Translations under genes and position numbers: made by a program
Shown here: positions 4,593 through 47,689 of the stretch, piece by piece
Layout: every line of letters begins with the position of its first letter
Numbering within the stretch: the stretch's first letter is position 1
From: Prorocentrum cordatum
Lineage: Eukaryota
Direction of reading: 5' to 3'
DNA length: 64,000 nt
Assembly (NCBI GenBank): GCA_963575745.1
Contig: CAUYUJ010000148.1
Span: forward strand, 186,001 to 250,000
Notes under the pieces: model-generated
What the model was told of the DNA's origin: nothing
Databases searched by the model: none
Seen by the model: the letters and a program-made list of their open reading frames with translations, nothing else

Positions 4593-5532
<940 letters not shown>

Positions 5533-6109
5533 CACCAATTCCACTGGCGGGCACATGTACGCCCACGGAGAATTGTCCGCCCGTTCAGGCTTGCCCGCCT
5601 GTCTAAGCCAGCCGCCCCCCGCAAAGAGAAATAATCCCCCCAAAGGGGTGTGATCGACGACAAAACGGGCGGGTATCGAGGGTATGGGGAACTCGTTTTG
5701 AATGGCACGCGGGCAAGTAAGAGCGACCAGTGTTAGACTGATTGGTGTTGTTATTGTTGTTGTTTCTGACCTCCTGTGTTGCCCCCCCTCCGAAGCACAT
5801 CGCGTTTTGCAATTAAAGTTTTGCTTTCGGGGCTCGCACCCAGTTTATCACAATGGAAATTGATGGGGTCACCGTGGCCACCCATGGGGGGCATCCCGTG
5901 CCATCTTGCTGGCTCTTGCGAATCGACGCTAAATGCCGCTAGTTGCGCGCTAACAAGTTGACGCTAAACCGACTCTGAATCTCACCCGCCCTTTGGGCGC
6001 AGGTGGGCTAGCACGTTTCCAGTTCCAACCTTTTTCTTCTCCCTGTTCGGGGGATTTACCCCCCCACCCCTTCCTGGGTCTGGACGCGCCCCCCGCGATG
6101 TGTAAGAGC

Positions 6110-6560
6110 GTCCTGTCTGGCCCAAGATAATTCCAAGAGGGCGTTCGGTAGCCCAAAGGTGGCCTCCAAGATCGCCCAAGATACCTCAAAATCGGTCAAG
6201 ACAGCCTCCGACACGCGTACAAGAGGTTTCAAGACGGCCCCGAGACGGTTTCAAGTGTCCTCCGATCCCTCCAAGGACCCCCCCCCAAAGGCCAAAATCC
6301 GTTAAATATCTAAGGGGGATCAATGTGTTTGGGCCTTCTCGCTTGTTCGCCTCTTATGGGCCCTTGAGGCCTCAAGATGGCCCTAAGACGGACTGAGGTA
6401 GCCCCAAGAGGCACCCAAGAGGAGCGCCCAAGAGCGCCCCAGGAGCGGGCCAGTACGGCCCCAAGACAGCATTGTTGAACCTCCGAGTGGGCGACGGGAA
6501 CTATACCCCCCCGTGGCGCCAAATGGCGCCCCAGAGGGCCCCATGATGGCGCTCAAATGG
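6110..6560 (+). repeat. Degenerate GGCCCCAAGA-type dispersed satellite block
   Basis: Repeated CCAAGA/GGCCC units. Similar blocks lie at about 2340-2500, 3070-3260, 10130-10330, 11075-11600, 13590-14085 and 49960-50320 (+), and 43060-43320, 44880-46130 and 48480-49260 (-). Confidence 0.8.
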
Positions 6561-9500
6561 CATTACGAGTTTTCGAAGAATCCCTCACCACGACATATCC
6601 CCACCGCCTGACTTTTCGTCCGCCTTGTCATCGTCCGGTCCTTCCTTGCTTCTTTCCTGCTGCCTCCCTGCTCCTATTCATCCTCCTCGCGCCGCGTTCC
6701 TCATGCTCCTCCTCCTCCTCCTCCTCCTCCTCCTCCTCCTCCTCCTCCTCCTCCTCCCCGTCCCCCTTACATGGTTGTCCTCCTCTTCCTCCTCCTCCTC
6801 CTCCTCCCCCTCCGCATACCCCCAATATGGTCCTGGGCATCACTAGCACCAGCTGCACCAGCAGTAGCACCAACATCAACACTAGCAGCAGCGGCACCAG
6901 AAACACAAACCACAACGACAACACCAACGATACAATCAGCTACAGCACCACCGACACCCTTCGCTACAAGAGATCTCCCAACTTAATGGTGCTGCCAATT
7001 TCAAAACGCACGCGAGTTGAATCTACAAACCAGTGCAAGAGCTATGATCAAGGATGCCCATCGAAATACATCTCCACTCTGCGCAACACTGGCGTCGGAT
7101 CGTAGATACAGCAACCTCGGCCAGACACGCTCTCCATAGGGAACACCATGGCGCATACTGCACTGATTTCTTCCCTGAACTTCATTGCGCGAAGCTATTT
7201 GTGGTCCTTGTTTTCTGGCCCCAGGGAACTGCCCACCCAGTTTGGACGCTTCCAAAACGGCTGTGCGACCGCGTGCTTGCAGGCGTCCCTGATGAACCAA
7301 GTCACCTGGTAATCGTTTCTGGATCGGCTGGTGGGGATACTTTTTTTGGTCGTGGGCAGACGCGTAAAGCTGTCGCCGAGAGTCACGGGCCAGCCTAATT
7401 AGCTACTGAGCGAGCTGGTGGGGATACGCGAAGCGTGAATAATTACCGCTGTCTCAACGACTACCAGGCGCTAGCACACGCGAATGCACTCGAACGACGG
7501 AGCTACAAGGAATATGTATACATACATATATATATATATAATTCCCATGAGTTGCTACCGAACTGGTGCATGCTGCGGATTGCGACTGCTCGCTACTGCT
7601 CGGATCTGCGCAATGCAACCTGCTTCAACGTACTGCTGCTAACCGCCGTGTGCCGATTGGTTCTGCCAACCTCTTTGGGCCTCTTCGAATATTTCGGGGC
7701 TTCTTGTGTGTGTGTGTGTGTTCGAATCTGTCAAAGCCTCGGAAAGTACCGCTAGCAGAGAGAATACTCACACTGAGTGAGAACTGCATTGCCTGTGCCC
7801 CAAATTGGGAAATATGATACTTGCAATGTTGTCCAACTCCTATCTCCCCTCCTCTCCTCTTCCGTCTCCTCTCTCCTTCCCCCATCCACGAACTTGCACT
7901 GCATTTGCTCCGCTGCGCTAATTCGCGCGCAATCGTCTCTGCCTACGCACTGATGGCGTACAGCTGTTCGTTCGGAAGCCTGTGCAGTCTTGTGGCCGTG
8001 TGCGCCGCTGGAGCTCGCTGATATACTTCAGGGTCCCTCTTTGGGGCCTCTGGGGCCGCCTTGAAGCCTCTCGGGGGTCTGCTGGAGCTATTGTGCTGTC
8101 CGTGGAGGTCTTGGGATGATCTCCCCACATGTTATGTAACGGACACTCAAACTCAGACAGCGTTTGACTAGCGCGCCTCCCAGTGGGCTGCTACAAGGCC
8201 CAAGTAGACGCAAACAGTGAACGCTGCGCACGCTGCCAAAAGCTACTGCGGTATCGGCTTCATGGCCGCTGCGCTTGCGAAACCTTGTACACACAGCATG
8301 TGGCATGCGTCGTACCGACCACACATGTAAGACAGCAGCCCAGAATTGGAGCCTGCAGCGGCGTCCTTGAAGGCAGACACGGCGAACATCACCGACGATC
8401 TCCTCGAGCAACTGTTGATACGATGTGTACGCACTGGCACCGGTCGGGCCTGCACAGCTGCCGCTCACGTCAGCAGAATCACGAGCACTGCTTTGCCAGG
8501 TGAGCTCGCTCCCGCCATGCTTCGCGCTGCCAAGACACTTCGCCTGGCGAAGGGCCTTCTCCCGTGCAGCTGTGTGCGGAGTAGGCGCGCAGAAGCGCAC
8601 TGAGCTCCCTGAGGGGCACGGCCCGCGCGAAGTTCGTGCCGACACGGGCCGTGCGCCGAGAGTAAATTTTGTTCTCAGCCGAAGAGGCGCGCCTCAGGAC
8701 ACATCAGCCGAAGAGGCGCAGACAGTTCTCACAACGGAGGAGCAGCGGAAGTCGCCAGCCGATCTTGCACGTCACACGTGGTTGGCCCTGCCAAAAACCC
8801 GCTGGCGAAGAAGACTGAAACTGGAGCTGGCAGGGGAACCCTGGCTCCCCAGGCCACCCGCTAGTCGAACGACGAACTGGCGGAAGGCTCGAGGGTCAAC
8901 GTCTGGCGGGGACCAGCCCCTTGATCCGCCATGGGACGGAAGGCCAGACACCCCGCTCCCGCTCAGGTCGCTACTGGGAGCGCACTGGGCGCGAGCCTGG
9001 CGCTGCTTCCGCTGGCCACGCCGCTTGGCAACGCTCTTGCTTTAGACTGGTGAGCTGATGAGCAGGCGGTACACGGAAATGGTCGCGATGGCGCCCAACA
9101 AATGCATCCACTCTGGGACCATGGGTGGAGTCTTTAAGACGCGATCCGCGTGAGGCGCTCGCCGGACTGGGCGGGGCGCCGCCATGCGAGTCCCCCAGCT
9201 AGGGCCACGGGTGGAGCGCTCTGTCCGCCACGATCCGCGTATGAGCGCGGTGGCGTCATGCGAGTTCACCCGCTGGCGCCACGGGTGGAAATCCCAGTGC
9301 GCCACGAGCCCAATATGGGTCACAATCCGCGTGAGGAGTGCGCCGAAATGGTAACGGTGGCACCATTGAGTTCCCACGGTGGGGCCATGCATGGAACTCC
9401 CAAGGGACAAGGGACCACGATCCGTGTGAAGGAAGGGCGTGCCGACGCGTGCGTGGTGGCGTCACGCGACACCGCTTGAGTCATAGGTGGCTAATGTGGC

Positions 9501-11600: not shown

Positions 11601-13589
11601 GCCTCTGCTTCCTTTTCCTCCGTCTCGTCCTGCTTCAACTAAATCTCCTCCTCCATTCTCTTTCTCTTCCGAATGCTCCTCAATTGGTTCCACAACAGCT
11701 GGTGGAACACACGGTCCAATAGCTTGGCCAGGCTTTGGCCAAGCGTTTGGCCGCATTGGCGTTTCCAAAAGGCAGGGGCTGGTGGTGGTTCGCCGTATGT
11801 GCCTTCGATACTGACAACGACCATCAAACTGCAGGGGAAGAAGACACGACCATCCAACATGACGGAGACCCGAAGAAGAGGAATCGAAACAAAACAAGAG
11901 CCGGCATGTCCTTCGTACCATATCCCACTTCTCCTGGCAGGCTCGCAGCACAGGCAAACCCAACTGTCTCCAAGGCCGCCCACGGCAACAACGCAACGAA
12001 CGACCGACCGAACCTGCAGCGGAACCGAAATCGACCGAAACTGGCAAGCCGCAAGCATCCTAAACGGGCGCAGCGTCAACGGCACAACAAACGAAGAACC
12101 GAACCGAATCGGCCGAATGCAACCGACTGCGGCGCAACCGATCCGACCGAACCACGGGCACTCTTAAGTCTCCCTTCGCACGCCACCCGCTGCACTCGCG
12201 GTCGACACGTGTTGGCGACAGCAGATGTCCGGCGTCTGGGCGCGCGGCGTGTGGCATCTCGCCCTGATCAACATGTGCTTGGCAGGAGCTGGCAACATCG
12301 GACCGGGGAATCTGATCGAATCAGCATGTGCGTCGGAGCGGGCTGCAACAGCATGGAACCGACATCGAATCGGATCGGCCGCGTCAGGATGCAAAACAAA
12401 AGCATGCTAACATCGGGCCGCATCGGATCGTCCGAGCATCGGCATCGAACCGGAGCGACCCAGCCGAAACCGATGTATCGAATCGGATCGGTCGGGTCGT
12501 AGTTGACCCTGGCTTGGCGGTGAGCAAATGGGCGTAGGGGGAGTGGGGTTGCCTTCTTAGATTGCAAACATAAAAAACACCATAAACAGAAACTGTTGGC
12601 GCTCCGCGAGAATCCAAGAAATCCGCGCGGAGCGTCGAACATTTTTATGTATGGTGTTTTTCTTCTTCGAGGTCGAGCGAGGGGGTGGCCCTCTTCTTCG
12701 AAGACATATTGAGTTTAACCGATCCCCATCCCCAGCGGCGCAGCCTGGGCCCCACTGGCCGATTTACCCCCCTAGATGGGGACATAGGTCGTTCCCTTTC
12801 GGGCTTCGAGGTGTGTATCCCCAACTGGGGGGTAATTTGGTTGGGGTCTCGAATGGGATGAGGATGGGAATGGGGATCGGTTAGACTATACTGACAGATG
12901 GGTTCTTAGAACCACTCCGCCCAAGCTTACTCCGCTGGCCACCGCCGCGCCCCCCGCATCGCTGAGCGCCGCGCTGCCGGCGGACGGACATCCGGCCTCC
13001 TCCAGGCGGTAACGTGTCAGTACAGAGCGTCCGTAAAACGTTGCCGACAGGCGTTATGCGCAATTCTGGGGGGCAGCAGCACGGTAGGATGACGAATAAA
13101 CCAAAATCATCAGATAATCCAGCAGGTAGTTTTCTGCCGCTGGATGAGATTTCGGAGCGAGCGATCAAATAATCTCGATGCCGACGGCGACGCCATGGAG
13201 CAGGCCTGGAACCCAGTGTCTTCACGATCTTCCAAGAAATCCTCCAGGAGACCAAATTTGGCTCGCTCGTCGGGTCGAGGTGAATCAAGCCTGGTCGTAA
13301 TCGAGGTCGTAATCGAAGTCGAAGAAATCGGGGGCGGCCAAGAGGGGGGCGTCCAAGAGGGGGGGGCGCAAATGATGGCCGGCGGCATGTGCGCGGCCCA
13401 AAGGAGGGACGTAAAGAAATAAGAAGAGGCACCGTGAAATCTGAGATATATCATGGCGTCCCCGAACAAAAAAAAACCATCCATTCGATCCTTCCCCAAC
13501 GGGGGGGGGTCCCAAGTCAGAATACGGTCCCCCCCCCCCTCCCCTCTCCGGGTCGCCTTCGAGCAGGTTCGGCCGTCTTTCGCCAATTC

Positions 13590-14085
13590 TGAAGTCCGAG
13601 ATAATCCAAGAAAGGCCTCAAATCGCCACAGAGCGCTTCAGGACTGCCCAAGATGCCCTAAAGACGGCCCCCGGACAAAAACTCAACTGCCACAAGAGGG
13701 CTCCAAAAATGCCCGAAAGAGAGCTCCAAGACGCAATCATCATGATGGGATTATTGGTCTTTGGTGCGTCCGATGGCCCAAGAAGGCCCAAGCGGTCCCC
13801 GAGATCGCCCCAAGACGGTCCAGGGGACCACTAAGAAGGCCACCAAAGGGCGCGAGAAAGCCTCAAGAGATCCCCAAGATGGCCCCAGGACGCCCTCAAG
13901 AGGGGCTCGAGAAGGGGATCAGTTCTTGACACTCCGAGCCCTCCGCCCCTATATCACCTCCGAGCCAGCCAAGAGGGCCCCAAGAGATCCCCCCAAGAGG
14001 CCCAAAAGAGGCCCAAAAAAGGCTGCAGTATCGCCTCCAATGAGAAAGCCCCCGCGTGGCCTCCCAAGAGACCCACAACCCAGGC
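13590..14085 (+). repeat. GGCCCCAAGA-type satellite block
   Basis: Same degenerate unit; it ends about 50 bp before the spliced leader. Confidence 0.85.
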
Positions 14086-14133
14086 GCGGTGGCGCACGGG
14101 GCATGGGGCCACTAAATTTATTCCTCCTGGATC

Positions 14134-14155
14134 TCCGTAGCCATTTTGGCTCAAG
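14134..14155 (+). other. Perfect genomic copy of the dinoflagellate spliced leader (DinoSL), followed by a 7-nt SL remnant GCTCAAG (14156-14162)
   Basis: TCCGTAGCCATTTTGGCTCAAG is a 22/22 match to DCCGTAGCCATTTTGGCTCAAG. It is not followed by the GT donor of an SL RNA gene. Confidence 0.97.
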
Positions 14156-15409
14156 GCTCAAGCATCGCCCGCTCGAATCGATCTGTCCGCGGAGAGCTTT
14201 GGCGGACAGATCGCCCGCTCTCGCCGAGACCTTGAAGATGCCACTCGGCCTTTGCTAACGAAAATCGGCAAGATCGGCGACGAGCTCGATGAAGCACACA
14301 TTCGTACGGTCAACGAGGAGAACACGATGAACCAGCACATCGAAAAGTCCGAACAACAATAGGCATCTCTGGCACCTAATACCCAGAGGTCTCAGTCAAC
14401 AGCTACGCAAGAATACAAATGCAAACGCTTAACAATGTAAGGGTAAACGTGCTATTAGCGCGGGCACCAACAACATTATCAAATTCGACTCCATCGAAAC
14501 GGCATGCACATACATCCGAGAACAAATATCCTCAATGCAAAGCCAACTCACGAACCATATGTACGCAAAAGGGAAGCGTTAAGACATATCATTTGTGGAG
14601 GTTGACCGCGTGTTCGACCGAGAACGGCGGTTGCTCATTTACGCAACGGTGGCCTCAAACGTGAGAGTAAGCTTGTCTGGGCAGCTTAAGACAGAGAACC
14701 AGCTGACCGTGCTGCCCGTAACTATTGTTTTGGGGTGATATTTTGACTCAAAGACGAATTGCAGATTACATACACGATCCGAGTCTCAGAAGAAGCGACA
14801 TATACATAGAAACTGATGGGCAATTGGCTTCAAAGGTATACGCGCATGACATGGCAACTGAAACGGTTAGGGTACTTGGAAGTCTGGATGCGATCAGCAA
14901 AACCACCAGAAACTTGCAGAGTTGTAAACACAATGCGATAGAATATTTCATTGATCAGCTCAGGGCACAAACGGCGGAGCAAAAGAAAAACTCCAAAGGC
15001 AAAACTTGAAAATAGGATGCACGGCAGGCACTGGCTGCACCTACCACATGGATTTATCCGTCCAATGCCGGACCCGACGCGAGAGCCTCAGACATTCCAG
15101 GTGGTACCCTAGCTTCTGTTTGACTCAAGATTGGCACTCACGAGGTGGACGCGGAGCCAGACGTTGACAACGCACCCAGTGATGCCACTTTTCTGGCTAT
15201 TCGGCCAAAACTTGCCGATCTGACTTCTGACCTTCCTTGTTTCGACCGACCAGGCGAAGGCAAACTTCCCGCGACCAATCATGGCAATGGCCACGCACCC
15301 GGGCAGAGCACAGATACCTACGCCCCGCAAAGATACCAACGCCCGAATTGCTTAACCACCTCCTGCTCCATCAACTTCTACAAGCAGTCCTTCTCCACGA
15401 GCGGGAGCA

Positions 15410-18209
15410 TCGATTTCTATTACATATGGAACGTGTAACGTTAGAGTGTGCAGATAGCAACACAGCTGGACTCATACAATACATGACCAACTATGGCATT
15501 GACGTGCTGTGCATGCAAGAGACTCGGAAACCTTGCGCAGAAGTAAATTTGAAAGACGACCTAAATACTTGATCAGGAGCAGACTGTGCTGAAAACATTT
15601 GGGCTGGTGCTGCGTTCATTTTTACGCCACGAATGAGAAGATGCATCAAATCTTCCAAACAAATATGCGACAGGATTCGTGTATCAAATTACGAGTGCAA
15701 GCGCAGACGTTCGGCATGCTGGGGCTAGATGCGCCTCATGACCAACGACCGCCAGAAGAGTGCATTGACTTTTTCAACGCGCTGGATGACGAATGCAAAT
15801 TACGGCAAACTGGTAGGTATTAGGCAACTTGAGTGCACGCGTTGGCCGAACGCGTCCTGGCGAAGATGATGTGGCAGGACTGCATGGCTGGGGGCGGGAA
15901 GCCGTGCGCCAAGTGGAAAGATCAAACAGAGATATACTCTTGGACCTCTACTTTGGCAATATATTGATCATTGCCGACACGTTAATGCAACAAGATCTGA
16001 AAGAAAAAAATGACTTTCAGAGAGGTCGGGATCACCAATCAGGCTCCGATAAACATGCTTTCGCATAACGTCTTAGACTTCTTCTTATGCACGGCGGGAG
16101 CGCTAGACGTTATCCAGTCTCTTCGGAATTAGCGTGGTGCAGCGTTGGCTACCGACCATTCCCTCGTCACCTGCACTATGGCATTGGAGATGCATGCGGA
16201 CACGCGGCATCGCCGCCCTGAGACGGACGCGGCTGCATTGGATGACGAGGAAGTCCGTGGACATTTTACGGACGTATGTCTGCCGAACGTCGAGCCCGGA
16301 AAAAAAACATGTGCACGACATGTGGGACAATGCAAAATACGCAATGGAATGCACAAAAAGAACGCTTCCGCTCCGGGAAAATACAACACGACAGACTTGA
16401 CCTTCAAAGAAAACGTAAACTTTGATACAACAGAAGAGCCAGGCAAGATCACGGAATCATCCGAAAATCAGCAAACATCGACAAAACGGAGTGTGTGGAG
16501 AAACATGTCTAAGAAAAAGATTGGGCATCCTTAGAAAAATATTCCGGTCGAATCCGCACAGAGCCTGTTGATAGCGAAAAGCACGCGGACACGATGGCCA
16601 AGCATTTGGAAGAAGGACCATGGAAAGTACAGCCGGCGGCAGTGTTGGATCGAGCACCACTGGGAGTCGCCCTGCCCATCGCCGACGCCGATTTTGCAGA
16701 CAAAAATGTTGGATCCGCAATCTCAAAAAAAGCGGGGGGGAACGCATCCGGGCCAGACGACATACCAGCGGAGTTCTGGATAGCCTTAGCCCAAGACCCT
16801 AAATATTTTGCTTCATTGGTCAACGCGTGTTGGAAGGAAAAACATATGCCAACGGGATGGAGATATGTTGGTGTGACTACGATCTACAGGGCGACAATTA
16901 CCGCCTGCTCTGTGTGATTTACAAGTTATTGCCAGCGCTATTGCTGGGGAGACTACAAGACGCTGGGGCCCAGAGCAAACTAAAAACGACAGTCTGGTTT
17001 CAGGAGACGGAGGAGCACCATCGGTGCAACTCGTGCTGTGCGAAGACATATCGACATATCAGAGGCAGAACGAGGAGGTCCAGGCGAAAAAACTTGCCCT
17101 GGGCTGGAAGAAAGCATTCGACTCCATCAAGGTGGCCGCTCTTTTGGACGCACTGCATATTTTGGTGTACTTCCACGCATGCTTACTCTCATTGCTAATA
17201 TTTGCGAGAATCGACATTCTTGCATTACAGACGGGCGACAGAAATCTAGCATTAGAAACCCACTCACGGGAATTGCACAGGGTTGCCCTCTATCGCCGTT
17301 CCTCTTTGTCAGGATGATGAGATTGGTCATCAAGGATGCAGAAGACAAACAGGACGAGTAATCGTTCAAAGCAGTTGCTGCTGGAGATTTGTCTGCTCTG
17401 TTGCACGCCGACGACACCCTCCTGATTGGGCGACGCGCTGGTCAATCTCAAGTACTGCTAGATGCAATCGCCCAGGCAGGAGAATAAGTGGGGATGGAGA
17501 TTCATTGGGGTAAGTTTCAACTGGTTCAAATAGGCTGCGACGCCCAAATGCTGGCCCCAAATGGTAGTGTGACTCCAACTACCGAACAAATGGAATACCT
17601 GGGGGCAACGATCCACAGCTCCGGCATCATGAAGCAAGAGCTGGTTGAACGATTGGGGGCAGCTTGGGGTGAATCTCGAAGATGCACTCGGGCTTGGAAT
17701 CATACGTCCATCAGTACAGAGCGAAAGCTGAACGTACTCGGGGCGCTGACTAGGACTGAGCTTCTGTGTTCGTTGAACTCTGCCTGGCTAAAGACAACCT
17801 GAAAAGCCACAGACGACTTTTGGATGGGTTCCAGGCGTGATGCCTTCTTCATGTTCTGACCCTTCCCCATTCTAATATCCCAAGAGTGTCCAACAAGAGT
17901 GTGCTACAACAGGCGGGAGCGAAGCCCTGCAGTGCTCAACTACTTCAGCATCAACTCATATGGCTCTGGAAACTTGGCCGCACAAGCGACGCAGAAGTGC
18001 TCCGAAAACTAACCTTACAACAATGCAGCGTGATACCGATCACTGATACTCTTGTGCGGAAGCGTGGGCGCCCCAGGCACGAGTGGGCGAAGTGCCTGCA
18101 CCAGAAGATGAGAAGCTGTTTCGAATCTTATTCGGCTCTCTCCCAGTGCGGGGCAGACAAAGGACAATGGTGCCGCTTTGTGACGAAGTTCGTTGACGAG
18201 CACGAGTGA
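15410..18209 (+). pseudogene. LINE pol relic: AP endonuclease + reverse transcriptase, with many stops and frameshifts
   Basis: EEP motifs YIWNV (~15420), IDVLCMQETR (~15500) and ATDHSLV (~16150). RT motifs ASGPDDIPAEFW, WKKAFDSI, GIAQGCPLSPFLF (~17270), LHADDTLL (17401; YADD changed to HADD) and MEYLGATI. C-terminal RKRGRPRHEW. Confidence 0.93.
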
Positions 18210-20220
18210 TCCTGGATTTCGCTCGTACCTACGCAGTTGCTCCTCCTCTCATCCCTCCTCCTCCGCCTCTGCACGGGGCTTTTTTTGCTTCACAACCCTG
18301 CTGCGCATTACAGTCGTGGGGCGTGCCGTTCTCGTGCGTCGCAGTCGTGATGTGGTTTTCTGCTCTCGCTTCCGACGCCCGACGCGGTGCCAGTGGTGCA
18401 TTCGTCTGCCACGCGCCTTGGTGGAGACAATGGCCACTAGCAGCAGTACAGTGCAATGCGTTGCTTCGCCCACGCGCCATTGAGCGTATGGCTTCTTGAC
18501 CGCCAACACGCCCTCAGGAGATCCCAATAGACTCTTAAATGCTCCTGAAAGCCTCCAAGAAACCGATGCCTTCCTGGGGGTCCCCTCCTGATCTCCCATG
18601 CAGTCGGAGGAACCGGCCGCAAGGCCTTCTCCAATACTCTCGATGAAACGACGACGGCAACGAGCAGGTCTGGAACCCAATGTTCGGGGGCAACTCATGG
18701 GAACCTCCCATGCCATCTTGCTGGCTCTTGCGAATGGGCGCTAACCGACGCTAATCGACGCTAAATCGACACTCGTCAACGCCAAATCGGCGCTCTCTCT
18801 TCGATTACCAATCGCTAGCGCACGCAAATGCACTCTTAACGAAATTATGAGGACATACTACCATCCCGTGATTTGCTACCAAACCTATTGATAATCGTCT
18901 AGGGCGTCGCTGCGTGACAGGCACCCCCGGGCATTACCCAATCGAAGTTTCACATTGCCACGGCGTGCTAACCCACCCAGCAACTCCCCCGATCGGTCCA
19001 CCTCCCTCGTCGCCCTCCTTCGCCTGGCTCCGCAGCTTCTTCCCGCACTCTCCCTCCAGACATCTGGCGCTTTTCCGGGGCGGCCAACAGGCGACGTGGC
19101 CGTCCACGACAGCAGTGGACAACTGAGGTGCATAAAGAATCGCTTAAACAAAAAAACATAAAATGCTGCTCATCTGCTGGCCTCCTGCTCCTCCTTTTCC
19201 TCCTTCTCCTCCTCCTCCTCCTCCTCCTCCCTGCTGCTTAGCCCAAGCCCTTGTACCTCTGATGGTATACGGAGGACTGTTGGCGATGATATTGTTGCAG
19301 CGAATCCTGGAAAGAGCCACGAGCACCTCTGCCGACCAGCCCACGCGTCCCTCTGGATGCTCGGCCTTCTTGATTGCTTGCTTGTGACATCTTCTCACCT
19401 CCTCTTCCTTGTCCTCCTACTCCACAATGGATAACATGATCCTCCTCCTTCTCCTCCTCCTTCTCATCCTCTCAACTCGTCCTGCTTGCCTGGTCTTCCT
19501 CCTTCCCATCATCCTCCGACCTTCTCCTCCTCTTCTTAGTGGAAAACAAGTAAGTAAGCATCAATCTGGACTTCTCGGCGCCACTTCCCCAGGGCAACTG
19601 TTCATCCCGAATCGTTATGCCCCGAAGCCAGGCACGGTCGTCCAGAGCAAAACACGGCGACAAACCGGCCATCTGGATGTTCAGGGCCCCGTAAGCCCGG
19701 AAACGCTAGACCAGGACATCCAACACCCCTCGAAACCAATTTGTTCTCAGACGCCACCACAGAACAAAAAAGGTGCACTTCAACAATCCAGGAACCAGCG
19801 TGGGCAAGGCACAAGAAGCCTGCCCCTCCCCCCCCTGGACCCAGACACAGACCCGAATCCTGCCTGCAGCGCAGCAACAAAAACATGCACTGGACGACCA
19901 AACCTGACTCTGCAGAACGGGTGTCGTTTCCCTAACTTGCCACTGTCCTGCTAAGTCCGTGATGTGGTCCCCGGGGGCATGATATGCTTTCGAGGCGCCA
20001 TCTTCGGCGCCTGCCACTACTCCCACTCGGTCCTTCTCCTGCTCCTGCTCCCCCTCTTGGCCGAGGCGACGAGGGGCCCAGGCCCCTGGTGGCCATCAGG
20101 AAAACATAACAAAGGCACGCATTCCTTTGGCATCGGGCCCTGGACGGCCCTGGGGCGCTCCCCCCGAGACCAGCTCCTCTCGAGCCGTTGCTTGAGGGCC
20201 CTGGGGCCCAAGCAGGATGA

Positions 20221-29520: not shown

Positions 29521-30909
29521 CGGACCCAGAAACAGATCCCGCAATCGGCAGTGGAGGGAGGAGGATCAGGGGAGAGGAGAGGATCACCCTCAGCTGGATC
29601 GCGCACAGTAAGGCGCTCCGACCGCCTCTTGGCACCTGGTCGGCCGCCCACAAGCCGCAGACAGAGGAACCAAACCTGCACAAACATGTAAACCTTCGAA
29701 TCTCTGCGCGGACTTCTTGGATCGCTCCTGGGCCACCCTCCCTGGCGCACGGAGCACGCCAAAGGCGGCGCCGGAAGCGCCGCCAGGGGGGGCCAGCGCA
29801 GATCGAAGGTATCCGCGCAGAACTCCGAAAGCTCAAACGTGTGCCGCTTCCTGTCCCTAAATGCCCAGAGCCACATCCCTGTTGACCATCGTTTAACCGA
29901 TCCCCACCCCCACTGGCATGGCATGGTCTCGGCCCCTCTGGCCGATGTACCTACCCCCTGAGTCGGGATGTGGGCTCTTCCCCTCGGGTTTCGAGGGGCA
30001 TATTCTCAAAAAGGGGGGGTGGGATGGTGGGGCTGAGTTATCGTGGCCCAGTGGGGATGGGGATAGGCTAAACGGTACCTTTTTTCCATGAACACGACCA
30101 GAAAATCCGCTGTTCTCCAAGGGGGCTATCATGCTCCCTTCGCGGACAACCATGCGCGGACATTGCAGTCATTGCCGCCTAAAACAAACCTGTAAAACTG
30201 CAAAACGCGGCACGGCAAGCACGCATAGTTACTTCCAGCATTGCTTAAGAGAACAACTTAGACTTGGAGTCGGCCGGGGGGTCTGAACTGGTTGGGCCCC
30301 AGAAAGGTCGGTCGGATGGGGAGGATGAGGCCACGCCCATTCAAAATCGGTCCCCAAACCTGACCTAAAATCCATCTGGCGCAGCTCCTCAACCCGGATT
30401 CGTTTTTGACAACCCTGGGCCCGAAAACGGTCCCAAGAGGCAGAAAAAGGCAGAAAACCCAACCGAACCCAACACCTCGAGCCGCTTCCCACTTCCTGCT
30501 CGCCGAACCAATGCTGGGCCAACTCAGGCCCCCAGCCGGCTCCAAAGTTAGGCAGCAAATGTGATAACGATACTTGCTTTTCGCGGCGCGCTGCATGCGA
30601 ACACAATGCCACATCCTTTCCCCAAATGGGTACGGAATATGGGTACGATGCCCAACAACAAATGTTTCCACAAACCAACAGCGGCGGCTGTTGGACAGAT
30701 GGCCTTTGGCCTTCGACCTAAGATAGACAATGTCCGCAACGACACCGACGGCGACGAGTCCTCTTCAACTGAACAGGACATGCTGTCTGTCTTTGTGACC
30801 GCAATCGGTCTTAGTACCTCCCCTAATGGTTAAATGATTATTTTGCCGCTGCCGCCGTCGCGGAGGAAGTCGAGAAGGGGAGGGGAAGAACGAGGAGGAG
30901 GAGGACAGT

Positions 30910-31590
30910 AATTGCAGCGTCCAGAGCAGAAGTTGGAATGGAACTGCATTGGAACACATTCCAATTATTCCAATACGGATGTGATGTACGACTGCGAACC
31001 CCTGCTGGAAAAGTCATTCGGCCATGCGGGCACATGCAATATGTGGGAGCAAATATTCACGACTGTGGGAACACAAACCGGGAACCCAACAAAGACTGGG
31101 GGCAACTTGGGGGGAAGTTTAAGCATTCGAGGCGCTGAGTACAAGCGGAGGCATGTATCACTAAATTCGGCATGGCTGAGCAAACAAGAACGCATGATAC
31201 TGGATGGATTCCAAGCCCGTTGTCTCAGGCGCACGTTTAACATCCCGCACGCCCACGAATCAAGAGTTTCAAAGAAGACGGTTTTTGATGAAAAGGCTTG
31301 GGGGCCGACATACAACGTCATAATGCTGAAATGAATCATCAAGTGGCTTGGTTTGGCGAGATTGGGCGCTGCCACGACCCAGACGTGCTCAGGGCATTGA
31401 CGCTTCAATCAAGGAGCTCGGAACCAACCGCCGATGTGTGTGTGTGTTCGAGCGCCCGGCCGCCCAAGACATGAGTGGGCGAACAGCTTGTACAATTAAA
31501 CCAAAACGTGCTTCAGCACTGAAACCGACCTCACGCAATGCGTTGCCGACGAGAAAACATGGATCGAACCCATCACCCATGCTCCTTTGA
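30910..31590 (+). mobile_element. 5'-truncated 3' fragment of an RTE-like LINE, related to the 15410-18209 element
   Basis: GMELHWNTFQL...MQYVGANIH, SLNSAWLSKQERMILDGFQARCLRRTFNIPH and PGRPRHEW parallel GMEIHWGKFQL...MEYLGATIH, SLNSAWL, DGFQA and RGRPRHEW of the first LINE. Confidence 0.9.
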
Positions 31591-32254
31591 ACCGTCTTTG
31601 CCATGGCCGGTTCAGTATTCATCAATCGTCGCCCTCATCCTTCATCCTGATCCTCCAGGCGCGCAGTTGGTGCGTCTGGTCTATGAGGACACGCGTTTGG
31701 CGCGTCGCGGCGCAATTTCGGCACGCGTTTTGCGTGTCCCTCATATGTTCGCCGTTCGATTGGCCCACGCGCGTTTGGGGCATGGTTGATTCGTTCGTTC
31801 GTTCGTTCGCCGCCGTCGCGGAAGAAAACGAGAAGAGGAGGAGGAGAAGGAGGCGAAGGACAGGGCGAACCGGGGGACGCATGGCGTTCATTGCCAGCCA
31901 GGAATATTATGGAAGAGGGGGGGGGGTGCAGGAATAAAAAGACCTCCTGAGGTGCACGGTGTCCCCCGGGTCCGTAGGCGACCCGAGGAGGAGGAAGAGC
32001 AGAAGGTGGTGGAGGAGGGAGAGGGGGAGGAGGCAAGCTAGGCGCGCTCGCGTCATATCTGACATCCTACCCCTCCCTCCCATCCCTTACCATGGCGCAG
32101 ATCCCCTCTCGACTCGCTCAGTCGGATGTCGAGCAGGGCAATGATCCCGAAAGGGTACGCGATGCATTGTAGAGCACGGCATGGCATGGCGTAGAAGAGC
32201 ACCGCAAAGCGTAGTATCAATCTAGCATTGCATTGCATGCCGTGGCATGGCACG

Positions 32255-44879: not shown

Positions 44880-46130
44880 GGGCTGTCGGGGATTCACAAT
44901 TTGGGCTTCTTGGTGCCCCCTTGGCAATTCATTTGGATATGTTTCGGGGCATGGTGGGGCCGTCTTGGAGCCATGTTGAATGGTCTGGGTGGCCCCAGTC
45001 GGCCGTCTTGGGCCTCTCTGGGTCTTCTCTGGGGCTCCTCGATGGCCATTTTTGGACCGTCTCGGGAGTGAACAGGCGAGGCCTTCAAAATTACTTTGGC
45101 CCCTGGGGGCCTGTTGGAAACCACTTGGAGGAACCCGGGTGCCGTCTTGGGGCCAACTTGAGGTGCCTGGGGCCGTCTGGAGGATAGCTTGGACCGTCCT
45201 GGTGGGCTCGAGGGCCGTCTCGAAGCCATTTTGAACCGTATCCATCTCGGAGGGTCTTGGGAGACCCAATCAACCGTATTGGGCCGCTAAGTGGCTCCTG
45301 GTGGGCCATTTTTGAACCATCCTGAGGCCTGGGGGCACCCCTTCGGAAGCGAAAGGGGGAAGTCTGGGCAGTCGTTGGCGCCAAAAACGGCAAGCCCGTT
45401 TTGGCAACGATTCCAAAACAATGCCTCTTCAGAATGGAAACGGCAAAAACAAACGGCGACCAGAAGCGGAATAAAAAATCCCGGAACAAAAGCCGGCAAA
45501 CAACCGGGACAAAACCGGCAACAAAAACGGGGTCGGAACCGGCGAGAAAACGGCAAAACGAAACCGGTAACAAAAACGGCCCTGCCGTGTGAAGGAAGGG
45601 TCCCCACTAAGTTTTGGGCAGGCCAGTTGTGTCTCTTGGTGTTTGAATACTTTGCCGCACGAAACCTTTTTAAAGCTTTTTGGGGGCCTTTGGTGGGCAT
45701 CCGCGGGCCGTCTTGGGGCCATCCTGGGCTGCCCAGGGCCGCCTGATAGGCTAGCTGGGACTGTCATATCAGGCTCCACGCCCGCCTCGAAGCCATCTTC
45801 GGTCGCGTCGGAGCAATTTGGAAGGGTCTCGGGGAGGGTCCAGGCCAACTGTATTGGGCCGATATGGTGCCCCTGGTGGGCCATGTTTGAACAACCCTGA
45901 AGCCTGAGAGCCCCTCCGGAAGCGAAAAGGGCAGATCTACGCAAACCTATCGTGTTCGTTGGTGCTTTTATTATTTGTCGTCTGAAACCCTTTTGAAGCT
46001 TCTGGGGGGGTGGTTGGGGGCCGCTATGGGCCGTCTTGGAACCGTCCTGGGCTGCCGGGGGCCGTCTGGAGGCTAGCTGTAACTGTCTTGGCGGGCTCGA
46101 AGGCCGCCTCGAAATCATCTTCGGCCGTGT
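44880..46130 (-). repeat. GGCCCCAAGA-type satellite blocks in reverse orientation, with an internal AAAACCGG-rich segment
   Basis: Recurrent GGGCCGTCTTGG; AAAAC(C)GG repeats at about 45435-45580. Confidence 0.8.
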
Positions 46131-47534: not shown

Positions 47535-47689
47535 CGCCGCGTCAGAGTCACATTGTCTTTGGGGGTCCAATCCGCCGTCTTAAGCTGCTATGGGGCTCCT
47601 GGTAGGCCATGTTTGAACCACCCTTAGGCCTGATAGTCAAGTCAAATCAACTGCGTGCAACCGACGGCACACAATCATAAAACAGGCCA

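Follow-up and report, generated by a model that had tools for sequence, protein, structure and literature searches.

A decayed LINE lying directly behind a complete spliced leader in Prorocentrum cordatum: a possible retrocopy of a trans-spliced RNA

The 64-kb window of Prorocentrum cordatum DNA analysed here (that is, the whole stretch at its full length) contains a complete dinoflagellate spliced leader (DinoSL, hereafter SL) that is followed, on the same strand, by a leader region and the decayed pol gene of a LINE (Table 1). The preliminary description of this DNA had read a perfect SL and then GCTCAAG, and both are present: the SL matches the DinoSL at 22 of 22 positions, TCCGTAGCCATTTTGGCTCAAG, the consensus being printed as DCCGTAGCCATTTTGGCTCAAG (PMC7245778, PMC8045281). 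A search with the 21-mer CCGTAGCCATTTTGGCTCAAG gave two matches with three or fewer mismatches in the window as compared to none in each of 100 shuffles. The second of these is on the minus strand (47533-47513) and has two mismatches, and the SL at 14134-14155 is the only site in the window with none. The GCTCAAG abutting it was scored by TRF as a repeat of period 7 (2.1 copies, 100% matches) and may be a non-canonical "relic" or a plain 7-bp duplication. The canonical DinoSL relic, given as the 15-nt CCATTTTGGCTCAAG (PMC12014239) and present in locus L092, is absent after the SL at 14134-14155, where there is just the 7-nt repeat; a canonical relic is required solely for the claim of two retrotransposition cycles. 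A 177-nt contig of sequencing run X1 spans the SL junction (14052-14228) with no differences, so the junction is not specific to the assembly, with the caveat that X1 is possibly the source sample.

Table 1. Features of the SL-LINE block and the basis on which each was placed.
Feature	Position	Strand	Basis
Complete 22-nt DinoSL	14134..14155	+	Direct reading, 22/22
7-nt repeat of the SL 3' end (GCTCAAG)	14156..14162	+	Direct reading and TRF
Pre-pol leader (5' UTR and/or decayed ORF1)	14163..15404	+	Composition; without homology in all searches
Perfect 11-bp hairpin, GATCTGTCCGC / GCGGACAGATC, 11-nt loop	14180..14212	+	Direct reading
Decayed LINE pol	15405..18209	+	tblastn and profile mapping
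APE	~15405 to 16290	+	Profile of APE-bearing homologues, positions 2-280 on 15474-16291
RT	~16300 to 17830	+	RVT_1 match
pol C-terminal region	17802-18206	+	tblastn/profile mapping
Native stop TGA	18207-18209	+	Homologue C-termini stop at most 2 codons from it
Putative GC-rich 3' UTR	18210..18500	+	3' end probably near 18490-18505

The SL at 14134 does not look like part of an SL RNA gene. The sequence directly 3' of it, GCTCAAGCATCGCC, has no GTAC, no T-run, and no SL-RNA-type intron; in the SL-RNA-gene-like loci L086, L087, L093, and L099, GTAC and a T-run both stand within ~50 nt behind the SL. Rfam returned no 5S or other RNA gene, with no match at the gathering threshold in the whole window, and although the hairpin behind the SL appears in the centroid fold, the 127-nt fold is overall unexceptional (z = -1.4). 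We therefore rejected the reading of this region as an SL RNA gene. At 14134, the SL exon alone is present, without SL-gene features, the loci used for comparison being on the contigs of other organisms.

The earlier claim of an APE+RT pol on the strand of the SL is borne out. The Pfam family RVT_1 matches the frame-1 read-through of 16513-17802 with 50.7 bits (cut-off 29.6), and an HADD motif lies in frame 1. The window's own fragments match Exo_endo_phos weakly (E = 0.009 and 0.045), and the APE was placed by way of homologues: positions 2-950 of a profile of 10 full-length homologues map colinearly onto 15474-18194. A phmmer search gave 2407 matches at E≤1e-3 (best 2e-70), and a word-based protein search with an RT fragment gave one weak match. 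The homologues are 940-1004 aa long, each the product of one ORF, and begin at the APE, with Exo_endo_phos and RVT_1 and often DUF6451; their starts correspond to ~15474, and a WNV-type strand lies upstream of this point, near 15405. The homologue profile matches human L1 ORF2p over positions 6-816, with APE and RT colinear (E = 1e-46), and its match to R2-type proteins is confined to the RT (positions ~440-733). Judged by its sequence, the pol is of the APE type and not the CRE/NeSL type, with no REL endonuclease; by analogy, its architecture may be called RTE-like for a single-ORF APE+RT LINE. It is also as heavily decayed as had been described, with ~10 in-frame stops and 5 frame changes along a P0018-guided path (~15 disabling lesions). 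Because the APE profile can be followed from 15474, the N-terminus of the pol is complete and the copy is full-length, which is what a cDNA extended to the cap would give.

The stretch between the SL and the pol is less easily assigned. It had been called ORF1-like, a label that our searches do not sustain, although decay may hide a reading frame: no ORF exceeds 104 aa (stop-to-stop ORFs in 14141-15438 measure 51-104 aa on the plus and 52-85 aa on the minus strand), and no Pfam family was above its cut-off in 14163-15400. The fragment 14722-15009 had no match in a word-based protein search, and its top scores in the ESM Atlas were 0.80, with recognition below a useful level. By blastx and tblastx against the 151 homologues, 80 related loci, and the window, the best results for the leader were E = 0.005-0.02 over very short segments. 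The leader had also been said to run into the pol without interruption, and this holds for composition but not beyond it. GC content is ~0.50 across 14-18 kb as compared to 0.57-0.64 in the flanks; the SL sits at the drop from 0.57-0.64 to ~0.45-0.50, and the low GC lasts to ~18200. The trinucleotide distance from the leader (14163-15400) to the pol is 0.037, that of pol sub-chunks among themselves is 0.039-0.051, and none of 130 host chunks is nearer to the pol than the leader is. When the leader was divided, no host chunk (of 186) was closer to the pol than 14571-14980, whose GC of 0.47-0.49 is far from that of host coding sequence; 26 of 186 were closer than the SL-proximal 408 nt (14163-14570), and 28 of 188 were closer than 15015-15400.

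Because it lacks homology to the pol homologues and the related loci, and because the homologous proteins begin only at the equivalent of ~15474, the leader could be read as the trace of a composite origin, in which a full-length LINE became attached to an SL-bearing non-LINE RNA that makes up part or all of 14134-15400, and the SL never capped LINE RNA. Such a joint could have arisen by RT template switching at the 5' end of the LINE RNA, leaving a chimeric retrocopy, or from two adjacent independent insertions, and chimeric retrocopies made through template switching by the LINE RT are known in mammals. The first 408 nt past the SL, which are less pol-like, and an A-rich tract at 14983-15012 (18 of 30 A) would fit this explanation. 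However, the pol itself contains similarly A-rich tracts, one at 15984 with 18 of 30 and two with 17 of 30, so the one in the leader is no evidence of a former poly(A) tail; neither an internal TSD nor the signature of a junction was observed, and none of the 186 host chunks comes as near to the pol in composition as 14571-14980. We consider a composite origin unlikely.

The same lack of homology could also reflect 5' transduction, with an acceptor in the host DNA ahead of the source LINE receiving the SL, and the leader, or its 5' part, carried along as flank; the SL would then still arrive via RNA. For a pol of this type, whose homologues have a single ORF starting at the APE, a ~1.25-kb leader is long. 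The composition of the leader is LINE-like and not host-like, which argues against transduction, and if GCTCAAG is a relic, an identical 5' boundary would have served two successive cycles. This explanation seems to us quite improbable.

At the other end of the block, neither poly(A) nor a clear tail is found near 18500, and we therefore only infer where it ends. By run depth, the high-copy repeats of the flank start near 18.4-18.6 kb. The sequence at 18459-18491 weakly resembles 31753-31785 (score 24), which is the 3'-terminal stretch of a TSD-bounded copy at 31 kb, and the stretch 18190-18228 seems to recur on one related X1 contig. The search for a TSD brought up nothing significant: local alignment of 13900-14133 with 18205-18800 reached a score of 23 at best, as compared to a mean of 19.2 for shuffles (SD 2.2, maximum 26), and the 8-mer TCCTGGAT, which occurs at 14125-14132 and at 18210-18217, is within chance expectation for 8-mers. 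The preliminary description had asked whether the 3' flank holds an SL-derived TSD or SL RNA intron sequence. Between 18100 and 19200, where chance alone would give ~2, both strands are free of SL 7-mers, so there is no SL-derived TSD and no leftover SL gene behind the element.

Two more LINE fragments of the same superfamily as the pol, both 5'-truncated, lie in the window. One (30909-31808) lies between the two arms of a TSD, which agree in 47 of 58 columns, and ends, in place of poly(A), in a (TTCG)5 tail; the other extends from 48399 to ~47640 on the minus strand. Neither has an SL at its 5' junction. Truncated copies at non-SL sites fit an SL that is added to the RNA and lost by 5' truncation, and do not fit the SL as a target. 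Self-blastn found no second DNA-level copy of the 14134 LINE family in the window. The SL-like match at 47.5 kb was considered as abutting the 3' end of the 48-kb fragment in a chimeric retrocopy, which we rejected because the two are separated by a host repeat (47555-47636; further copies at 45254-45331 and 45863-45910). Also rejected was a 5' motif at 14235-14247 in the leader that seemed to recur beside the 48-kb copy (48756-48744), a 13-nt match with a score of 26 that shuffles equal or exceed (23 ± 2.4, maximum 37).

Among 80 metagenome loci with a related pol, one (L044) has an SL with one mismatch at 5012-5033, followed by 540 nt of unassigned sequence, a region matching RT profile positions 380-914, and an A-rich tail. 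It is flanked by a TA-rich direct repeat (4990-5010 and 7625-7646), a weak TSD of low complexity, which places the SL inside the apparent duplication. The eight loci among the 80 that include the pol N-terminus and upstream flank (L011, L018, L020-L022, L024, L031, and L032) have no SL, these being just 21-29% identical and perhaps not from dinoflagellates. On the contigs of other organisms, 1.04 Mb around 153 distinct exact-SL contexts contained no LINE pol of the 14134 family. In run X1, one contig has a 22-nt SL match somewhere upstream of, and co-oriented with, a stretch resembling 17114 onward, and two contigs join the upstream repeat (one at 13818, the other at 13734 plus CT) straight to the SL start, so the arrangement of this repeat followed by an SL is recurrent in the genome.

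That recurrence would fit an SL that came first, with the LINE inserting beside it, whether the SL was a retrogene relic, an SL-like pseudo-gene, or an SL RNA gene, and whether the insertion was random or guided by a target preference like that of CRE, SLACS, and NeSL. The X1 contig linked to 17114 could then be a 5'-truncated copy at the same target. The SL at 14134 is followed by GC and a partial SL, which recalls Fugacium, where introns of SL genes are described as beginning with GU or GC and tandem-SL and SL-like genes with partial SLs exist (PMC6616646). Against this order of events, the 3' flank is free of SL fragments, no T-run or GTAC-type intron follows the SL, and the window has neither a second full SL nor a gene for 5S or another RNA. 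Moreover, the pol is of the APE type without a REL endonuclease, neither related copy in the window was inserted at an SL (for one of them the TSD is clear), and the SL of L044 lies inside the flanking duplication. SL-targeted insertion, which had been offered earlier as the alternative, failed every test run on it (APE pol, SL-free 3' flank, no SL-gene intron, relatives not at SLs), and a pre-existing SL of any kind strikes us as a rather remote explanation. The accompanying remark, by which an APE-type element would not usually insert at specific targets, was too strong, as APE-type LINEs aimed at small-RNA genes exist.

Our preferred reading takes everything from 14134 to ~18500 to be one retrocopy, made from an SL-trans-spliced RNA with a full-length LINE in it, and we would put its probability at roughly 0.5. 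That the SL came in with a trans-spliced RNA whose reverse transcription ran through to the 5' end, as first proposed, is the best-supported account of an SL reduced to its exon, an SL-free 3' flank, an APE-type pol, and relatives at non-SL sites; these observations do not amount to proof. A full-length APE+RT LINE with a leader of ~1.25 kb, a pol, and a 3' UTR of ~0.3 kb would have been transcribed, probably within a longer host transcript, and trans-splicing would have given its RNA the 22-nt DinoSL, as it does the ordinary mRNAs of dinoflagellates. Reverse transcription to the capped 5' end, followed by integration, would then have made the SL the first base of the element. The leader would on this account belong to the LINE, and GCTCAAG may reflect a previous cycle. 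An intact SL beside a decayed pol had been thought odd, but it is only mildly so, since by a rough estimate 29 nt would remain unchanged ~5% of the time at ~10% divergence, and it is no longer odd if the copy was already dead and was mobilised in trans. We favour mobilisation in trans, or of a copy already damaged, over movement in cis.

Slamovits and Keeling reportedly described DinoSL-tagged "recycled cDNAs" of dinoflagellates in 2008. DinoSL relics mark retrocopies, and the GO term RNA-dependent DNA replication was reported as enriched among SL-relic "retrogenes" in two Symbiodiniaceae genomes (PMC5585692). The block at 14134 resembles such retrocopies in having a sense-strand genomic DinoSL at the 5' edge of a seemingly inserted stretch, and it differs from them in that its cargo is a full-length LINE and not a host mRNA, and in lacking poly(A), a clear TSD, and the canonical 15-nt relic. 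It fits this known class, with a LINE as cargo; the literature that we searched contained no explicit description of a LINE beginning with a DinoSL.

Non-LTR retrotransposons adjoining spliced-leader sequence are known in the form of CRE1/2, SLACS, and CZAR of trypanosomatids and NeSL-1 of nematodes, which are specific to SL genes, have a restriction-enzyme-like endonuclease, and split the SL exon within SL RNA gene arrays, so that SL sequence is found on both sides. Unlike them, the element at 14134 is of the APE type at its N-terminus, and its SL is whole, is on the 5' side only, and is without SL gene features. As in other single-ORF APE+RT LINEs, the APE and RVT_1 of its homologues are colinear with human L1 ORF2p, and one related copy in the window is tailed by (TTCG)5; unlike them, it has a leader of ~1.25 kb that is outside the coverage of the homologous proteins. 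The proposed function of the SL would be analogous to that of the HDV-like ribozymes that cut the 5' ends of R2 and of L1Tc (Pr77/L1TcRz) from host co-transcripts (PMC3185411, PMC3383444), in that a promoter-less LINE would obtain a defined 5' end from a read-through transcript. The proposed means differs, being host SL trans-splicing, which would supply a cap too. No Rfam ribozyme family was found in the window at the gathering threshold, where a diverged ribozyme could escape detection. A retrotransposon transcript receiving a spliced leader, as proposed here, has a precedent in the LTR retrotransposon Cer1 of C. elegans, whose spliced 2.4-kb subgenomic mRNA is described as acquiring SL1 while its 8-kb genomic RNA does not (PMC3315495); unlike what is proposed for 14134, the SL of Cer1 is not carried into new copies.

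Dinoflagellate genomes are rich in SL-tagged retrocopies, and the retroelement source of these, as well as the expression of retroelements in genomes where few promoters can be recognised, are presented as open questions (PMC6050394, PMC12014239). If the preferred reading is true, LINE RNA shares with host mRNAs the route of trans-splicing and full-length reverse transcription. One dead copy and one metagenomic parallel (L044) are suggestive and not a demonstration; given a whole genome, the share of full-length LINEs starting with an SL could be counted, along with whether the SL lies inside their TSDs. A further step, which we regard as possible but doubtful, is that the lineage has no promoter and must rely on the SL trans-splicing of its host, the SL being a functional part of the element. 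A read-through transcript would then be cut at an acceptor at the 5' boundary of the element and capped with the DinoSL, and the SL would be copied into each daughter as the next acceptor, leaving stutters of the SL end such as GCTCAAG. It has been suggested that the SL might supply a minimal promoter (Song et al. 2017, PMC5585692). If such dependence were true, this LINE lineage would be a strong candidate for the machinery, sought for a long time, by which SL-mRNAs are recycled into the genomes of dinoflagellates.

The block from 14134 to ~18500 opens with a complete dinoflagellate spliced leader (DinoSL; the 22-nt SL that trans-splicing adds to mRNAs), which, as the preliminary description held, agrees at 22 of 22 positions with the consensus as it appears in excerpts of PMC7245778 and PMC8045281. 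The second SL end, GCTCAAG, does follow immediately 3' of it. Because a 177-nt contig from sequencing run X1, possibly the same sample as the assembly, spans 14052-14228 with 0 differences, the junction is not an assembly oddity. In two X1 contigs the upstream repeat runs straight into an SL start. With up to 3 mismatches tolerated, the SL 21-mer (variable first base omitted) has 2 matches in the window and 0 in 100 shuffles. The window is accordingly nuclear DNA of a dinoflagellate. The simplest account, to which we give a probability of roughly one half, is that the block was retrocopied from a single RNA, SL-trans-spliced and containing a full-length LINE: a LINE-bearing RNA would have received the SL by trans-splicing and then been reverse-transcribed as a single retrocopy.

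Features of the spliced leader, the main LINE copy and its relatives in the window
Feature	Position	Strand	Detail
DinoSL, complete	14134-14155	+	TCCGTAGCCATTTTGGCTCAAG, read directly
GCTCAAG	14156-14162	+	read directly
pol stop TGA	18207-18209	+	homologue C-termini
5'-truncated LINE fragment, pol residues ~700-940 (31-kb copy)	30909-31808	+	(TTCG)5 tail
5'-truncated LINE pol fragment (48-kb copy)	48399 to ~47640	-	TTGA-like short-repeat end

The frame-1 read-through of 16513-17802 retrieved 2407 proteins (E<=1e-3; best 2e-70) from a set of 1.84 billion representatives, and its Pfam RVT_1 score, 50.7 bits, exceeds the cut-off of 29.6. All 7 full-length homologues (940-1004 aa, each a single protein) contain RVT_1; an N-terminal Exo_endo_phos was found in 4 and DUF6451 in 3. 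A pol profile built from these seven and three shorter homologues matched human L1 ORF2p across both APE and RT (E ~1e-46), and its match to R2-type proteins was confined to RT. By tblastn and local profile search, profile positions 2-950 cover 15474-18194 (+) in order, bearing out the APE+RT pol reported on the SL strand. Because the profile spans this interval, homologue C-termini fall at most 2 codons from the stop, and an upstream APE strand lies near 15405, the element is an APE-type LINE with pol complete at both ends. The copy is dead and, as first noticed, heavily decayed: the reading path guided by the pol homologue P0018 meets ~10 in-frame stops and changes frame 5 times. Ten stops per ~2.5 kb correspond, by rough estimate, to ~10% divergence, at which the chance of 29 nt remaining unchanged is, again roughly, ~5%; the oddity ascribed to an intact SL beside a decayed pol thus stands as a slight surprise, not more than a mild one, and would vanish if the transcript mobilised in trans came from a copy that was already damaged. 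GCTCAAG could have arisen when a new SL was joined at the TG of an older one (TG is raised as a non-canonical acceptor in an excerpt of PMC12014239, but from another pattern) or equally well through a 7-bp tandem duplication, and we do not count it as evidence for two cycles.

The 1.25 kb between SL and pol had been called ORF1-like, a label that found no support: it holds short ORFs only (longest stop-to-stop 51-104 aa; 52-85 aa on the opposite strand), without a protein or profile match. No Pfam family reached its cut-off in this leader, and no match came from a word-based protein search, the ESM Atlas, blastx/tblastx with 151 homologues, the 80 related loci and the whole window as targets, or, 5' of 15474, the pol profile. 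Composition does link the leader to the LINE. GC is ~0.50 over 14.2-18.2 kb against 0.57-0.64 in the flanks, and the trinucleotide distance of 14163-15400 to pol (0.037; pol sub-chunks against the remaining pol, 0.039-0.051) is smaller than that of any same-size host chunk (n=130; minimum 0.048, median 0.084). The middle, 14571-14980, is strongly pol-like (0 of 186 host chunks nearer in composition), and the two ends, 14163-14570 and 15015-15400, are less so (26 of 186 and 28 of 188 nearer, respectively). We hold a composite origin (SL-bearing non-LINE RNA plus LINE) to be unlikely, and 5' transduction of flank from a source locus quite unlikely. An A-rich tract at 14983 (18/30 A) is no evidence of a poly(A) remnant, because a tract within pol at 15984 is equally A-rich (18/30).

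At the main copy neither a poly(A) nor a significant target-site duplication (TSD) was found; comparison of 13900-14133 with 18205-18800 gave a best local score of 23 (shuffles 19.2 +/- 2.2, maximum 26). The 8-mer TCCTGGAT lies right before the SL (14125-14132) and right after the stop codon (18210-18217), in a flank scan of a kind that yields several such matches by chance. One diverged X1 contig apparently shares 18190-18228, which argues that this stretch is part of the element. From the weak similarity of 18459-18491 to 31753-31785, at the 3' terminus of the 31-kb copy, and from the start of high-copy flank repeats, we infer a 3' end at ~18.49-18.50 kb. The two further fragments, found by tblastn, are of the same superfamily as the main pol, and the 31-kb copy has an unusually long TSD (~58 nt; 30851-30908 and 31809-31863, 47/58 columns identical). 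In both, the 5' junction lacks an SL (0/2); same-superfamily elements therefore use ordinary non-SL insertion sites, the SL being missing where reverse transcription ended early.

The window also holds a dispersed CCAAGA(G/C)G-rich repeat family (13600-14080; copies ~60-70% alike, with paralogues near 2.3, 3.1, 6.4, 11.1-11.6, 43.1, 45.0-45.7, 48.8-49.3 and 50.0-50.3 kb), upstream of 2 of 3 window LINE copies in the same orientation, possibly as a preferred target, and with a very high depth, in the thousands, in X1 and a second run, X2, against ~2-15 for the LINE. The 80% likeness of 18630-18683 to 13165-13219, one on each side of the LINE, and one X2 contig running from 18735 back to 13328 suggest that the LINE lies inside a tandemly repeated host unit. 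The second SL match, with 2 mismatches (47533-47513, -; TCCGTCGCCGTTTTGGCTCAAG; 47534-47513 with the first base), may mark an SL-tagged retrogene: GC-rich sequence with long ORFs comes after it on the - strand. This match lies ~100-250 nt downstream of the 48-kb fragment, with a host repeat (47555-47636) in between.

Scanning two collections for exact SLs returned 153 distinct contexts on other organisms' contigs. Whereas the SL-RNA-gene-like ones (L086, L087, L093 and L099) carry GTAC and a T-run within ~50 nt past the SL, the main-copy SL, ending at 14155, is followed by GCTCAAGCATCGCC and then a GC-rich hairpin. GC after the SL is by itself no bar to a gene-like origin, since Fugacium SL-gene introns begin GU or GC (tandem and partial-SL genes also exist; PMC6616646, in excerpt). 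The window holds one full SL only and gave no Rfam match of any kind. SL targeting as in CRE/SLACS/NeSL, the alternative first offered, fails on two counts: 18100-19200 contains 0 SL 7-mers on both strands, and so no SL-derived 3' flank or TSD, and the main copy differs in endonuclease type, being APE-type. An SL already in place, used as target or met by chance, is quite unlikely. The four gene-like contexts, on contigs filed under bacterial MAGs (exact DinoSL, GTAC..., short stem, T-run), are probably genuine dinoflagellate SL RNA genes, on contaminant contigs within prokaryote MAGs; L092 has an SL with two canonical 15-nt relics.

Among 80 metagenome loci encoding pol relatives, a single one (L044) carries a one-mismatch SL on the pol strand (5012-5033); next come 540 nt in which no pol is recognisable, RT (profile positions 380-914) at 5576-6986 and an A-rich tail. 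A weak, low-complexity, TA-rich direct repeat flanks it (4990-5010 and 7625-7646; score 28, shuffles 18.7 +/- 2.5, maximum 29); should this be a genuine duplication, it encloses the SL. One X1 contig has a 22-nt SL match somewhere upstream of sequence resembling 17114 onward. No SL was found in the eight of the 80 loci that span the pol N-terminus and upstream flank; these are only 21-29% identical and may not be dinoflagellate. The 1.04 Mb surrounding the 153 exact SLs contained no pol of this family; most of those contigs are not dinoflagellate nuclear DNA.

Many giant-virus-MAG contigs (L101-L219, viral_contigs; e.g., L111, L120, L123, L128, L129, L154, L206) carry exact DinoSLs, often several per contig and on both strands, with varied downstream sequences and, upstream of each, one of two conserved AT-rich ~30-nt motifs, which end in aaatataaatttta or attttactaaacca. 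These look like virus-encoded spliced leaders before genes, or misbinned host DNA; our literature search found no paper on them, and a dinoSL on an RNA-virus assembly (Levin et al. 2017) is cited in an excerpt of PMC10235124. Short tandem arrays of three exact SLs at 50-nt spacing, acaaaaagctaggtgcagggtaaaccagc after each, also occur on giant-virus-MAG contigs (L124 5001-5121, L160, L161, L164).

That the SL came via reverse transcription of an SL-capped RNA, common to three of the four readings, is probable. DinoSL relics are established marks of retrocopies, and the enrichment of 'RNA-dependent DNA replication' among SL-relic genes (Song et al. 2017; PMC5585692, in excerpt) implies that published sets already include RT-bearing genes that carry such relics; an explicit description of a LINE starting with a DinoSL was not found by full-text searches of open papers or in the excerpts consulted. 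It is rather unlikely that this lineage relies on trans-splicing for the formation of its own 5' end. If it does, trans-splicing would correspond in function to the HDV-like ribozymes of R2 and L1Tc.
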